Part shown: in pieces, positions 20,746 through 34,609 of the stretch
Position numbering within the stretch: position 1 is the first letter of the stretch
How the letters are laid out: the number at the start of each line of letters is the position of its first letter
Assembly: GCA_051294375.1 (NCBI GenBank)
Contig: CM119268.1
Span: 7,464,632 to 7,528,631, forward strand
DNA length: 64,000 nucleotides
Direction: 5' to 3'
Source: Paraspadella gotoi
Taxonomy: Eukaryota > Animalia > Chaetognatha
Made by a program: the position numbers and the translations under genes
Notes under the pieces: model-generated
What the model was told of the DNA's origin: nothing
The model's database searches: none
Seen by the model: the letters and a program-made list of their open reading frames with translations, nothing else

Positions 20746-23700
20746 AGAAGAGAGAAGGCAATATCGAAAAGTCGGGCAATCCCGCATGCCAGCTTGGACG
20801 ACGCATAACCTCGATTCTGTCCAGAAATCGCCGGCTCTTTTCTCAAAAAATTATATTTTTTTTTCTTTTTAAATGATGAACTCTTCCATAAAACCTAATT
20901 TTTTTGTTTAATTCAAACAACCATTTACGATTTAAAGAGAACGATTTTTAAAAACGTCGTCATCAACATTTCATTTCTTTATCAAATCTCCAAAAAAACT
21001 ACGGCTAAAATAAAATATTTCAAGTCAATCAGTCGCTGAATTAAACCAATCGGTCCAACTGAACTTTGTTTTTCAAGACAAAGCGGCGTATTAAAATCGC
21101 CTGAGACAACATTTCGAAAGAGAGCCCGTCTTCCAAGACGGGTCTCCGAACCCGAGGACATCCAACCGACGGCCTTCGAAGACTCAAATGCGTCTTTAAC
21201 CAAAGATGAGTTTCGACGACGACGACGACTTCAATCAATTCGATGGAATCGGACAGAGAGATTCCATGATCTATGGATCGGACAACAATGATGACTATCG
21301 GTTCAGCGACAGCGACGAAGATGACGAATTCGGCAAATTCGATGGTGAGAATGAGCGATAGTAATCGTCACTCTGGAATCGTCAGAGCCTTTGATTATTC
21401 GAGTGAATAAGGATACGGGAATTTCTCAAGTTCACCCCGCCAAGAGACCCTGTTCCGTAAATTGTGACCCGGTGCCGGTGGCTCATTGAGCACAGTCCCT
21501 ACGCTACGGAAAGCGCGAGGACAGCCTTAAACCGCCCGGACAATGCCCGGTCAAGTGTGAGTATTGGTTAAGACTTTTGGTTAAGACTTCGTAAAAAGAT
21601 CACGTCGGTTGACAATCACGTCGCCCGCATTCGAAAGGGGACGACAGTGAAACGCCTCACAGCGGCGGCGGCGGCGGCGGCGGATAAAGCGGTTCCGTCT
21701 AGCGGCTGCGGCGTTCTTGCCGCCTTGAGATTTTTCGCGAAGAAAAAGATTTGATCCGATTTCGACTTTAGACGAAATTTTATTTAATATAGGAAAGGAG
21801 ACAAAGGAATAAATAAAAGGAAAAAAAAGAGGAATGTAAAAAAAAAAGAGAAAGACGTAAAAGAAAAGAGAAGGAAAAATTAAAGGAAGGAATAATACCA
21901 ATCGAGAAAAGGCGAGCGAGGGAAGGTATCAAAAGAAAAGGGCTCAAGAGAAAATAAAAAGGTGCTCATAGTTGTCGGACCAAACTTTCATGCCACTAAA
22001 TACATACCCTTTTTTCAATAAAACAACATTTTTAATCGATTTATTTAAAAATCATTATGCGGGATGTTATTGAAATTGAATCCAACATATTCGAGCAACA
22101 CTGAGATGATTTAATTAATTTTCGTGTTTTTTTCTCACCTTACAGATGGAACGAAAGCGGCTGTGCCCCCCACCAACACTCGGCATTGTTTGGAAGGAGA
22201 GAGACCGGTTACCAATTTGTCATTTTTTCAATAAATATAAATATTCTCATGAAATGTCGCTTTTATCGCATTGACTTTAGGCCGTTTGGTGGAAAATGCC
22301 CAAGGGATTCAGAAAAAATAAAAGGGAAACGTATGAAACTTTCGGAAGCGTGGACTTGGAGGATCAAATTGAAGGTCTTTGTTGTTGTTGTCGTCGTCGT
22401 TGTTTTTGTCGTTGATGATGATAAAAATGATGATGACTTAAATGATTGTAATCATTAAGGAATAATAATTGATGATGATGATGATCCTGATAATGACGAT
22501 GAAAATACGATGAATCTTGATTATTGTGATGACGACAACACGATGACACGATGATGTGATAACATGACGACTCGTTCCAGGAATCACGGCGCAAAAAATC
22601 CCCGGGGAATTCATCATGGCGACGATGCTCAACAAAACTAATCGAAGAGTCGAAATTTTTTGGCTCGACTTTAAAGGTGGGAAAAGTTTATATTTTGATT
22701 TTAGACTTAAAGGTTACAGATACAAAGATACAGATCGAATATGAATAAACAAGTGCGTCCACTGACTTATAAAAACATAAATTTAAAACCGGTTGACTTC
22801 AAAAAAACGGAGATAAAAAAATATTAAAAAACTCTTCGGTAAGTTGCTTTAAATTTTTTTGAAACCTTTACTTTTCAGGAACACAGATAAGTTACGGCCA
22901 AAAAGATCCCGGTGAAATCTACAGTTGCAAAACCTATATACACCATCCCTGGATCGTACGGTATATATTAGTCATGAAATAAAAACCATCGAAATTGATG
23001 TACAATTCATTCGTTAGTTTTTCGTCCTTGCCTCAAGACGTAAGAGGGAAGAAAAAGTCGATTCACCATCCAACCATTTCCCTTTCCGTAGCGCCGTCCC
23101 TACCGAAGAAGGAGGAGACCAACCCCTCATGCTGCTGGAAGTCGATGGGGGAAAATCCCCCGTTTGGATTCCGGATGAAGAGGACGCGGGAGAGAGCGTG
23201 GAGATATCAATCGTGGAGAGCAAGCCAGGTCAACAATAATTAAGTATAACGGCGTCAAAAAAAAATAATAATTTGCACCTTAGAGGAAAACAGAAGTCTT
23301 CTAAGTGCCGTGCTATTTCATAATGACTAAATTATTATTTCTACTAAGAATTAATTTTTTTTTTCTTCTGGTATGCAAAGACCGAATAAATTCTCATTTC
23401 CATCTAATCCTGCCAGAATCATGACTCTGAAAATCTATGGCAATAAAATCCGAATCTGTGAATTTACCAAAGATCAAAAGTCGGCTCGATTCAATCAAAT
23501 TATGAGAGAAAATGATTCCTCTTTGTGCTTTTAATATTTTTGACAAAGACGTATACTGCTATTCATTTGATTTTCCTAACATAATATTTCTTTTCATACG
23601 CTGAAAGTCAAATCATTTCAATATCATTTTACAGACTCTCGGAAATTTTTTTTCTTTTATAAAATTGATACAACAAATAAGTATATCATACATGTAAAAA

Positions 23701-32700: not shown

Positions 32701-34609
32701 TGCCAAGGCGAGTTCGAAATACAAGGCTTCTTTCAGGGCTTCGGAAGAGAGTGAAGACGGTAATGACAAAATAGGCAATAATGTTAACAACGGTGACACA
32801 ATTAATTTTCCAGGGCAAGAAACTAAAAAAATGAACAAAGAAAGCGAAAAAACACAATCGAGTAAGATGTGTTTATTGATGTAAGTATATTTTTAATCAT
32901 TTATCTGGTGAATGTTTTTTTGGGGCGAAAGACTTTGGTGTCGCATTTCCTTTTTTTTTTTCATGGGAATTCATGATCTCATCTCATTCTATTTTTAGAA
33001 CAACATTTTAAAATCCTTTTGATGTTTTTATTTATAAATTACCAAAGGGTTTTGGTATTTTTTTTTCATTTCAATGTTAATAATTTGTTTGCCGAATAAT
33101 TTATTTCATCAGACTTCGATTGACTGGAGTTGAAGAACAAGATACATTCTATTGTCCTATACTATAATATACAACATTTTACTATAATATACTATAATAT
33201 ACTATAATATACAACATTTTACCTTTTACGTTTTACTTTTCTTTAAAAATAAAACTGAGAGAAAAAAACAGTAAGACAGGCGGACAGGCGGACAGAGACG
33301 GACAGATAGAAAGATATTGATAGTTATTAGATAATAATGTGAAAGTGGTTGAAACGTCATCAATACTACTTATTTTTTACCCTATGAAAGAACAATATAT
33401 CCAAAAGTCTAATCTCTTTTTAAACCTTCAAATCTCGATGCGCGATGTCCCGATCGTGAAGGAAATCGACGGCACCGATGATTTGCTGGAAAATCCTCTT
33501 CGCCTCAGATTCGGCGAGAAATCCCAATCGCTGAGAGGGAAAACTTGATCGATCAATCAATCAATCGATTTTTTAAACCAAGTCATGTGAAATATAAAAG
33601 TTAACTCTCAAAAGTGTAACATATTTAAGCAATAAAACCGATCACTCAATCATTCTATAAATGAATCAGTAATCATTAATCAATCGATCCTCCTTATCTG
33701 AACAAATGACCTGGATATGATCCAAGAGATCTCCATCATCCGAAGCCTCCATCGCTATGCAGCATCCGAGCGGAAGCTCCAGTGTCTCGAAAACTCTGAC
33801 GATGTGGGGATGCTGTCAAGAAAGGGATTTCATTTTTTGGGGGTATATTTTTTTGCGGGTTTTATTTTTTTTTCTAGTAAGAAATAAAGAAATTTTAGAA
33901 TATAGCTGACAAAAATATCATCTCGCTAATCGACCCGCTCGTCAAACCATTCGTCCCGAAAATTATCCCTCACAACCGTCCCAGCCAATCATTCCAGCCA
34001 ATCACTCCCGCCAATCATCCATTCTACCTCCAACTCTTTCCAGATGCTCATCTCTCGTCGAAGAAACTTGAGCGAAGTTTCGCTGCTCCGCGTCGTGGCC
34101 TTCAACGCCACTCGAACTGACTGCTGTTGTTTATCCTGTTGCTGATGATGTTGTTGACGATGGTGATGATGATGATGACGATGCCTTCGCCGGCGATTCT
34201 GCTGTTGCAATTGCTGTTGTTGCATCTTCTCCGGTACGACGTAAGCGTAAGCTGGAGGAAACGGAAGATGCGGCGTCCTCTGAGATAACGGTTTGAATTA
34301 TTAAAAAAAAAAGTTTAAAATAATTTTTTTGTTGATTTCGATTGTTTGTTTACAAATTTTCAGTCCCACCTCCCTTTTTCCCGCCGCGTAGAATCCGGCC
34401 CATATCGTGGACAAGTGTCCTTTCCCGATGACGGTATCCAAAGTGTATCCGCATTCCAGCAACGATTCCGCGATGTTCTTCTGTCCGGAATCGAGGGTTC
34501 GCGGGATTCGAGGCGATGGTGCTGCCAAATTTTCCCCTGCCGTCGGCGGCGACAATTGAGAATCTCTCTGTGACTGTTCGTTTGTTGAAGGAGCGGCGTC
34601 GTTGTACAT
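16996..34609 (-). CDS. TSSK: Testis-specific serine/threonine kinase-like (CAMK group), 11 exons, ~540 aa
   Basis: Exons 34609-34370, 34279-34028, 33812-33711, 33530-33426, 19941-19863, 19289-19174, 18845-18702, 18519-18420, 18344-18266, 17721-17600 and 17279-16996 are all GT-AG and in phase. Motifs [47 protein letters not shown] and [38 protein letters not shown] and LSxTFCGS are TSSK hallmarks. The symbol is at family level. Confidence 0.92.
21206..32884 (+). CDS. Kinase-less ROCO protein (VHL-beta, LRR-CC, MBT x2, LRR, Roc, COR, TIR x2, CaaX), 12 exons, ~3055 aa, nested in TSSK intron 4
   Basis: Exons 21206-21344, 22146-22207, 22281-22374, 22581-22676, 22879-22960, 23038-23228, 23724-23851, 23986-24124 (GC donor), 24213-24346, 24418-24622, 24695-24927 and 25220-32884 join in frame. 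Roc: [58 protein letters not shown]...[18 protein letters not shown]...ICVATV...IHFDGW...LHPLGY. TIR: CFISYCW...CWMDIE...[15 protein letters not shown]. Ends CLLM*. The large exon is certain; the 5' exons are a manual model. Confidence 0.9.

Follow-up and report, generated by a model that had tools for sequence, protein, structure and literature searches.

A tandem ROCO protein with a TIR pair in place of the kinase and a predicted lipid anchor in the chaetognath Paraspadella gotoi

An LRR-Roc-COR core is common to LRRK2, LRRK1, the Roco protein of C. tepidum and the protein described here. According to PMC6337361 (section 10), the C. tepidum protein is a monomer with GTP and a dimer in the nucleotide-free state, and LRRK2 forms dimers at membranes. 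Prokaryotic AP-GTPase (Roc)-COR proteins and NLRs follow a sensor-switch-effector logic with a TIR effector, and the bacterial LRR-Roc-COR proteins with TIR effectors are predicted counter-invader systems (PMC8195603, sections consulted).

Animal Roc-COR-TIR proteins are listed in a few genome surveys and are never explained or tested in the literature searched. Trichoplax TRIADDRAFT_57945 (P0102) has the order LRR, N-terminal Ras-like domain, MBT, LRR, Roc-COR, TIR, TIR and CaaX. The extra Ras-like domain has been noted, but in the consulted text of PMC4104024 it is not termed a second Roc-COR and the CaaX box is not mentioned. Aplysia LOC101848126 and LOC101845043 (P0024) and the amphioxus and Ptychodera proteins P0001–P0004 have the order MBT-LRR-Roc-COR-TIR. 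The Aplysia members are filed as "putative TLRs" and a GTPase signalling cascade is proposed for them, with no experiment in the consulted part of PMC9334734. The sea-anemone "Novel Gene 1", drawn with no more than about 1,300 aa, shares an FBXL-like LRR, GTPase, COR and TIR_2 with the P. gotoi protein. Its authors give the Trichoplax MBT form and an oyster C2 form as possible orthologues (PMC5094078, portions consulted). The literature searched gave no paper devoted to the family; Gerdol et al. 2017 (Dev Comp Immunol 70:145) and the supplements of a bioRxiv preprint may cover it. Family members were known from three papers, uncharacterised. The tandem Roc-COR, the family-wide CaaX box and a probable VHL-like domain are added here. 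The consulted portions of the literature gave no description of a tandem Roc-COR, CaaX or VHL fusion for the family, and nothing was found on VHL, ROCO and TIR combined.

The P. gotoi gene is located in a stretch of 64,000 nt (the window) of contig CM119268.1, assembly GCA_051294375.1, positions 7,464,632–7,528,631 of the forward strand. An open 12-exon model extends from an ATG at 21206 to a stop codon at 32884 on the plus strand and encodes 3,037 aa. The last exon is 7,665 nt, and the model has one GC-AG intron (24125–24212). A preliminary description made from the letters of the window had given ~3,055 aa; the spliced frame stands and the length is revised. The features, in positions of the window, are as follows.

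19942–33425, minus strand: intron of 13,484 nt in an antisense Ser/Thr kinase gene, enclosing the whole ROCO gene
21206–21344, plus strand: exon 1 (putative), acidic low-complexity N-terminus; open model with a GT donor, spanned by an unspliced contig
22146–22207 and 22281–22374, plus strand: exons 2–3 (putative); open model, alternative start ATG at 22296
22581–22676, 22879–22960 and 23092–23228, plus strand: exons 4–6, VHL-beta-like; on one 587-nt contig with exons 7–8
23724–24346, plus strand: exons 7–9, acidic linker and Cys-containing (F-box-type) LRR block, aa ~229–345
24418–24927, plus strand: exons 10–11, degenerate first Roc without P-loop, aa ~338–480; RNA joints and family profile
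25220–26206, plus strand: degenerate first COR, with a COR-B-like part at 25934–26206
26426–26884, plus strand: beta-sandwich with galectin/ConA-like arrangement; Z about 7 to galectins, low-confidence model
26963–27298, plus strand: MBT repeat 1; Pfam, best alignment to L3MBTL1 repeat 2
27368–27754, plus strand: MBT repeat 2 remnant; family MBT profile E 1.8e-4, C-terminal half only
28517–29410, plus strand: LRR block, EF-hand remnant (29075–29149), LRR block; Pfam for the LRRs
29489–30904, plus strand: intact Roc-COR with a CxxC...CxxxxH motif at the COR end; Pfam and PDB matches
30995–31417, plus strand: TIR1, a pseudo-TIR without catalytic Glu; TIR fold, Z 14.6 to 4c6t_B
31424–31891, plus strand: TIR2, with Glu2645 (31703–31705) at the catalytic position; TIR fold, Z 15.6 to 4w8h_A
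31931–32560, plus strand: conserved C-terminal Cys/His domain; in 115/120 relatives among the matches listed
32870–32884, plus strand: CaaX box CLLM and stop codon; translated sequence

Exons 4–12 are backed by spliced contigs from one run (X1), which is taken as RNA since GT..AG introns are missing from its contigs; runs X2 and X3 have next to no relevant contigs. The single 587-nt contig joins exons 4–8 and a 1,114-nt contig joins exons 9–12. The exon 8–9 joint has a short side of only 26 letters. Among the X1 contigs listed none bridges 25761–25937, where the frame is open, and none of the listed RNA joints is that of exons 1–2, 2–3 or 3–4; exons 1–3 are putative. Unspliced contigs run across the first donor, across intron 2 and over the end of intron 3, and one reads 22179–22372 without splicing at a depth of 6.89. 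The start codon is therefore uncertain and may be at 21206, 22296 or 22616. Separate genes for the 5' exons and the large exon were rejected on the RNA contigs and on the collinear homology with the family, where E values reach 3e-298.

The antisense gene has its catalytic-loop exon ending at 33426 and its DFG exon starting at 19941, with a phase 0 GT..AG intron between them. In the 14–40 kb part of the window there are one HRD, one APE and one DFG in a kinase-like context. A kinase as part of the ROCO-TIR protein was considered and ruled out, as the kinase motifs lie on the other strand.

A Pfam search of the last exon gives Roc (E 3e-19) and, directly adjoining it, COR-A (E 8e-29) and COR-B (E 4e-25), as well as the LRRs. 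All G-boxes (G1–G5) of this Roc, the second in the chain, are intact and near-invariant in the family. A PDB search with the intact Roc-COR finds LRRK2 (E 1.8e-33) and a bacterial Roco (E 1.4e-28). The Pfam search of this exon finds no kinase family, and no Pfam match to a STAND (NACHT/NB-ARC) NTPase is present; the NTPase is Roc/Ras-like. UniRef gives "kinase" names to relatives, but there is no kinase Pfam accession among the 120 matches listed. The intact Roc, the COR, the LRRs and the replacement of an LRRK-type kinase by TIR domains, all proposed in the preliminary description, are thus borne out. Its comparison to an NLR with a GTPase for the STAND ATPase holds as far as the NTPase is concerned; the protein may function like an NLR but is not itself one.

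The region after COR folds as two TIR domains, as had been claimed, but the two are not equal. TIR1 has Leu at the position of the catalytic Glu, the family has L, M, I or A there, and no Glu is common in helix C. TIR2 has a Pfam TIR_2 match (E 8e-15), and its Glu aligns with that of the Cat1 TIR and is kept in 119/120 relatives among the matches listed; the flanking Ser, Tyr and Cys are near-invariant. Structural matches of TIR2 have Hydra TRR-2 at the top, with MyD88 at Z 15.3, IL-1RAcPb at Z 14.8 and SARM1 at Z 14.5. A Foldseek search of the TIR region has SARM1 as its top matches. By fold, non-enzymatic adaptor TIRs are tied with SARM1, which counts against an NADase. Many non-TLR animal TIRs make cADPR by means of this Glu, and some Glu-bearing ones are inactive, according to the consulted part of bioRxiv 10.64898/2026.04.20.719644, where Roc, COR and LRR are among the domain abbreviations of the Fig. 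3 legend. The conserved Glu of TIR2 is therefore no guarantee of activity.

The C-terminal Cys/His domain has no Pfam family match. Roco proteins that have no TIR carry it after COR as well (P0184, P0204 and P0221, E about 1e-4), and fold searches that reach it are filled by TIR matches. The terminal CLLM is present as first described. A Cys at position -4 is found in 99/120 of the matches listed, mostly with M, Q, L or S at the end.

The N-terminal LRR block has a match in 54/120 relatives among the matches listed. A family profile over aa 215–439 gives E 1.6e-38 compared with a best shuffle of E 0.16 (n=200). For the first Roc, the family N-terminal profile gives E 0.0026 compared with 0.4 for the best shuffle (n=500), and the P-loop is kept in only 1/54 relatives (Trichoplax). 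In an alignment to Roc-COR, the N-terminus of the family matches over 457 columns (98.8%, E 6e-17). The value stays at 98.1% if Trichoplax, Ptychodera and amphioxus are left out and falls to 0.2% on reversal. The C-terminal Roc-COR profile run directly on the P. gotoi N-terminal region, and a BLAST self-comparison of the intact Roc-COR with the protein's own N-terminus, detect nothing. In the COR-B-like part, model residues 239–329 match the COR of C. tepidum Roco (3dpu_B) with Z 8.1, rmsd 2.2 and 82 aligned residues, but this Z is near the background level of the tool and comes from a model with a mean pLDDT of 43.7. That N-terminal model is confident only at ~237–330 and 580–646 and is marginal at 438–521; its Foldseek rows were disregarded except for MBT. 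With a dead N-terminal Roc-COR besides the intact one, the protein is a tandem ROCO. The N-terminal LRR block, the dead Roc-COR, the beta-sandwich, the EF-hand remnant and the Cys/His domain are all additions to the preliminary description.

Between the two ROCO units, the beta-sandwich was compared with the SPRY domain of paralogues, and this identity is not supported (hhalign 0.8%). The MBT domain has a Pfam E of 1e-12, in one stretch of the last exon, and its cage is D1075, F1107, W1110 and Y1114. In the MBT-bearing relatives the cage is kept as D in 30/31, F in 31/31, W in 31/31 and Y or F in 31/31. The cage-bearing half of MBT2 has no alignment. Of the two MBT repeats first proposed, the methyl-lysine cage is thus kept in MBT1 only, and MBT2 is a remnant. 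A third homologue search gave L3MBT-like proteins only. The EF loop of the family has D at position 1 in 99/120 and E at position 12 in 89/120 of the matches listed; the P. gotoi copy has K, Q and G at positions 3, 5 and 12.

The VHL-beta-like domain extends over model aa ~110–185 and shares an RNA contig with the first LRR exon. W126, Y136, T149, H153 and W155 are at the pocket positions. Their spacing equals that of W88, Y98, S111, H115 and W117, which we take to be the hydroxyproline pocket of pVHL. Presumably 14/43 residues are identical to the pVHL beta domain, ungapped and across a splice junction, including four of the five pocket residues; the fifth is a change of Ser to Thr. Exons 4–6 encode a probable VHL-like domain, a label taken from a motif and not from a tool match. 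The domain spans three exons, and profile and fold searches covered unbroken stretches only. Single exons (26–53 aa, too short for absence to count) have no VHL match in Pfam, give only CaMK1 chance matches against PDB sequences, and have no VHL match in a large protein set, the Atlas, plasmids or metagenome contigs. PF01847 was searched for in 1 archaeal genome and then in 401; the 2 matches obtained were below threshold and were rejected as unlike the segment. No VHL alpha domain or BC-box is evident in the segment, and it is matched in 0/256 relatives. Family N-termini upstream of the LRR block are 6 to 440 aa and mostly low-complexity. Judged from sequence, only the VHL-like cap looks specific to the P. 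gotoi copy.

The family spans Trichoplax, amphioxus, acorn worm, lophotrochozoans, rotifers and Plectus, with 170 matches, the top ones 43–47% identical. Vertebrates, arthropods and cnidarians are absent among the 120 matches listed, and genome scans for bacterial relatives gave no locus at first and later a single weak one. LRR-Roc-COR-TIR proteins do occur in other invertebrates, as had been stated, and the suggested novelty of the architecture for the most part does not hold: MBT-LRR-Roc-COR-TIR-TIR is widespread, with a Pfam MBT in 31/120 and the whole layout apart from VHL in 18/120 of the matches listed. SPRY, PLAT or C2 takes the MBT position, between the two ROCO units, in relatives (P0078, P0018, P0051). 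In molluscs, annelids and nemerteans a genome has several paralogues, among which the inserted domain is exchanged. A tree built quickly from 63 hand-picked Roc-COR rows places the P. gotoi protein inside a 53-row clade (SH-aLRT 98) but does not fix its position there. The Aplysia, amphioxus and Ptychodera homologues are in the same clade with 41–47% identity and, unlike P. gotoi, have no VHL-like region. Trichoplax P0102 is 37% identical over the Roc-to-C-terminus query. It differs in its retained N-terminal P-loop, in an SH3 match before MBT and in having about 20 aa before the LRR block, so there is no room for a VHL-like cap. Compared with LRRK2, LRRK1 and C. tepidum Roco, the P. gotoi protein has no kinase or WD40 and has instead the TIR pair, the Cys/His domain, the CaaX box and the dead Roc-COR. 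In contrast to prokaryotic Roc-COR proteins and NLRs it is animal, predicted to be lipid-tagged, tandem and slowly evolving, and uses a Ras-like GTPase and not a STAND ATPase.

These properties suggest, with a probability of about 0.5, a kinase-less tandem ROCO that is anchored by its CaaX box and in which the Roc-COR nucleotide cycle clusters TIR2, with predicted NAD+ cleavage, when the sensor is engaged. The CLLM would be prenylated and hold the protein on a membrane. Whether Roc-COR is a monomer or a dimer would depend on its nucleotide state, as in C. tepidum Roco and LRRK2. Assembly at the membrane would bring TIR1-TIR2 pairs together, with TIR1 as structural partner, and TIR2 would make cADPR-type signals or deplete NAD+. 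The N-terminal LRR and dead Roc-COR may be a regulatory scaffold for exchangeable inputs, MBT here and SPRY, PLAT or C2 in paralogues. MBT1 may read methylated lysine in a protein other than a histone, and hydroxyproline may be read by the VHL-like cap. The membrane-anchored sensor-switch-effector proposed at the outset is in part supported by the anatomy and by the conservation of the CaaX box (99/120), the TIR2 Glu (119/120) and the MBT cage (30–31/31). The likeliest setting would be an immune or stress trigger. The strong Trichoplax-amphioxus conservation (43–47% in top matches) is unlike the fast divergence expected of pathogen receptors.

A different role for the TIR pair, as a non-enzymatic adaptor by which a membrane ROCO nucleates MyD88/MAL-type TIR filaments leading to NF-kB-like pathways, is unlikely. 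Adaptor-type signalling has been speculated for the Aplysia members (PMC9334734, consulted in part). It is consistent with the Hydra TRR-2, MyD88 and IL-1RAcPb matches of TIR2, the lack of Glu in TIR1 and the inactivity of some Glu-bearing animal TIRs, but the retention of Glu together with the near-invariant Ser, Tyr and Cys suggests selection on a catalytic site, and the SARM1 matches in Foldseek also argue for an enzyme. Similarly doubtful is a housekeeping membrane or cytoskeletal regulator that resembles LRRK2 (trafficking, lysosomal or calcium stress) and is no infection sensor, with accessory domains that target partners. The deep conservation, the family EF-hand, the lipid-type C2 and PLAT domains of paralogues and LRRK2 biology (PMC6337361, consulted sections) fit such a regulator; the presence of a TIR effector, the multiple paralogues with swapped inserts and the absence of vertebrates and arthropods among the matches listed do not.

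It is very unlikely that the 5' segment is no functional VHL-beta reader but a decayed or unrelated beta-domain, or is partly untranslated, in which case the family would simply have one more ordinary member whose N-terminus varies. The single exons without a tool match to VHL, the variation of family N-termini and the putative status of the 5' exons would agree with this, but exons 4–8 are spliced in frame on one contig and the presumed likeness to pVHL includes the pocket residues. Returning to the anchored ROCO with an enzymatic TIR2, a more far-reaching version of it is quite unlikely as a whole. Here the proteins would be an unrecognised class of intracellular animal receptor, tandem ROCOs with a prenyl anchor. 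Their dead Roc-COR would pair with the active one, hold it in check and dock exchangeable "integrated" sensor domains (MBT, SPRY, PLAT or C2), and a TIR NADase would be released at the membrane; the VHL-type hydroxyproline reader of P. gotoi would then link oxygen-dependent prolyl hydroxylation and lysine methylation to NAD+ signalling.

As a single gene this is a modest finding, and the interest is carried by features of the family. Conservation points to a design with a lipid anchor, one live and one dead Roc-COR, a predicted live and a predicted dead TIR, and a methyl-lysine pocket. This conserved pocket is in a protein predicted to be membrane-bound, away from chromatin. If it is confirmed, the VHL-like cap would represent a reader of the hydroxyproline type that works outside an E3 ligase. 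If the proposed mechanism is true, the tandem arrangement would provide a natural internal pseudo-dimer for the study of Roc-COR oligomerisation and output, a relation debated for LRRK2, and in many invertebrate phyla the family would be the counterpart, with a GTPase as its switch, of NLRs and SARM1.

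The ROCO gene (window 21206–32884, plus strand) is real and transcribed. An ORF scan finds a large open exon of 7,665 nt at positions 25220–32884, and upstream of it are eleven small exons with GT..AG ends, one being GC..AG. From the ATG at 21206, the open 12-exon model gives a product of 3,037 aa. This is 18 aa below the ~3055 aa of the preliminary description; the start at 21206 is putative, with 22296 and 22616 as the other candidates. Introns in the window are short and AT-rich, and the DNA is animal in character.

Transcript support comes from one run of one study, X1, a public sequencing run that accounts for 99% of sampled words and whose contigs skip the introns of the ROCO gene. 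A 587-nt contig aligns piecewise to exons 4, 6 and 8; joints 4-5, 5-6 and 7-8 are among the pieces listed, and the remaining parts match exons 5 and 7 in length. Exons 9–12 are joined by a 1,114-nt contig, and a 6,771-nt contig covers positions 25938–32708. No contig bridging 25761–25937 is among the pieces listed (a further 44 pieces fall outside that list). The RNA junctions proposed earlier as a check for a single transcript are found for exons 4–8 and 9–12, but the exon 8-9 joint is thin, with just 26 letters on one side, and none between exons 1–4 is among the pieces listed. Unspliced contigs run across these last joints and may represent retained introns, DNA or antisense pre-mRNA of the host gene, the latter being possible because the contigs carry no strand. 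For the GC-AG intron at 24125–24212, there is a spliced joint as well as a contig that reads through it.

The host and the other features of the window are as follows.

18639–34627, minus strand, Ser/Thr kinase gene with kinase motifs, its 13.5-kb intron holding the ROCO gene
39238–41360, plus strand, rhodopsin-family GPCR exons (7tm_1)
4725–5114, plus strand, Fibrinogen-C domain exon
62182–62586, minus strand, bZIP exon

The ROCO gene is wholly contained in a 13,484-nt intron of the opposite-strand kinase gene; the exons flanking that intron carry the catalytic loop and the DFG motif. We take the kinase to be TSSK-like from its motifs, and the arrangement is read as nesting rather than as a functional link. 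A Gln/His-rich open stretch at ~34110–34240, between the Gly-rich loop and the VAxK-type motif of the kinase, is a candidate exon. The ROCO gene has one coding exon of 7,665 nt versus eleven of 62–233 nt; the single large exon, together with its nesting in the kinase intron, may point to an origin that was partly processed (retroposed). The middle of this exon (25700–30600) has a CpG observed/expected ratio of 0.56 and GC3 of 0.20–0.37, and its ends have 1.2–1.6 and 0.55–0.67, respectively; the dip resembles the footprint of gene-body methylation, or may mark a segment of different history. Elsewhere, positions 47531–49225 are almost GC-free (GC 0.015 at 48001–49000) and produce long spurious ORFs in several frames.

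Pfam families in the large exon are MBT, LRRs, a weak EF-hand, Roc, COR-A, COR-B and TIR_2. No Pfam kinase family is found there, in agreement with the kinase-less character first described, and the Roc-COR assignment is borne out by these families and by a PDB search, where the unit matches LRRK2 and bacterial Roco structures. The EF-hand is canonical-looking in the family but degraded in the Paraspadella copy. Of the two MBT repeats proposed, MBT1 aligns most closely with L3MBTL1 repeat 2 and has Asp, Phe, Trp and Tyr at the cage positions; the second is a half-repeat. Modelling of the C-terminal 660 aa (mean pLDDT 78.6) gives two TIR folds, with Z of 14.6 and 15.6. The tandem TIRs are present but not equivalent: TIR1 is without the catalytic Glu, and TIR2 has Glu2645 at the catalytic position.

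The N-terminal half of the family is, by profile comparison, a second Roc-COR. When the N-terminal family profile is compared with the C-terminal one, 457 columns align at 98.8%; the score is 98.1% without six of the best-preserved rows and 0.2% for a reversed control. Exons 7–11 match the N-terminal family profile with E 1.6e-38, collinear onward into the large exon; the best of 200 shuffled controls scores E 0.16. The Roc-COR profile alone did not detect this first unit in the Paraspadella N-terminal region. In a structure model that is poor overall, the fold of large-exon residues 239–329 resembles that of the C. tepidum COR (Z 8.1, rmsd 2.2, 82 residues). The first-unit P-loop is kept in 1 of 54 relatives, that of Trichoplax. 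The interval between the two units holds a beta-sandwich and MBT in the Paraspadella copy, and SPRY, PLAT or C2 in paralogues.

A search with the Roc-to-C-terminus segment gave 170 matches at E <= 1e-10; the following counts refer to the 120 listed. These come from amphioxus, Ptychodera, molluscs, annelids, nemerteans, brachiopods, rotifers, Macrostomum, Plectus and Trichoplax, with 43–47% identity among the top four. Segment searches find Roc, COR and TIR2 in all 120, TIR1 in 118, a C-terminal Cys/His domain in 115 and the N-terminal Cys-containing LRR in 54. Pfam MBT is present in 31, with the cage kept in 30–31 of these, and neither VHL nor kinase has a Pfam entry in any. Databases name many of these proteins "non-specific serine/threonine protein kinase", LRRK1, LRRK2 or MFHAS1. 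The whole layout apart from VHL occurs in 18, and 16 of these have a CaaX end; a Rotaria relative (P0049) has TPR repeats instead of the CaaX tail. A quick tree built from 63 Roc-COR rows picked by hand groups the ROCO protein with these relatives in a 53-row clade (SH-aLRT 98); its branch there is long and has no clear sister. The C-terminal Cys/His domain also follows COR in TIR-less Roco proteins, which suggests that the TIR pair was inserted ahead of it, after COR.

The VHL-like segment (exons 4–6, aa ~110–185) is part of the transcript, since these exons share an X1 contig with the first LRR exon. Compared with pVHL, the spliced segment is presumably identical at 14 of 43 positions without gaps; we take the Trp, Tyr, His and Trp of the hydroxyproline pocket to be matched, with Thr replacing Ser. 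No BC-box follows. The candidate domain spans three exons, and searches with these exons one at a time, short pieces for such a test, gave no VHL match. A second homologue search added 136 proteins, and none of the resulting 256 relatives matches the segment (best E 4.5). The candidate label VHL-beta-like is probably correct, and a non-functional 5' cap is improbable.

The protein may be a prenylated tandem ROCO in which the active Roc-COR gates cluster formation of an enzymatic TIR2, a reading with a probability of roughly 0.5. Its input side would consist of the reader domains together with the dead Roc-COR, and the oligomer cycle is modelled on that described for CtRoco and LRRK2 (PMC6337361). 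Prenylation is predicted from the CaaX motif with Cys3034; a Cys at -4 occurs in 99 of the 120 listed relatives. The Glu at the TIR2 catalytic position is present in 119 of 120, and the plausibility of an enzymatic role is drawn from bioRxiv 10.64898/2026.04.20.719644. Two rival readings, signalling by the TIRs as adaptors only and a membrane housekeeping role, are each unlikely.

The core of the architecture, whose novelty the preliminary description left to a search, is widespread and partly in print. In the sections consulted, PMC4104024 describes TRIADDRAFT_57945 as a ROCO with an additional N-terminal Ras-like domain, with MBT and TIR given in a figure legend; PMC9334734 lists MBT, ROC, COR, LRR and TIR for Aplysia LOC101848126; PMC5094078 describes anemone NG1 and Trichoplax and oyster variants; and PMC8195603 treats bacterial counterparts. 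Excerpts of PMC7075850 and PMC5549309 contain nothing specific to the ROCO-TIR family. None of the portions cited reports an experiment on the family, nor is the tandem Roc-COR, the CaaX or VHL brought up in them. The Paraspadella gene is a new form within a known but uncharacterised kind, and the interest is carried by its conserved design features and by the probable VHL cap.
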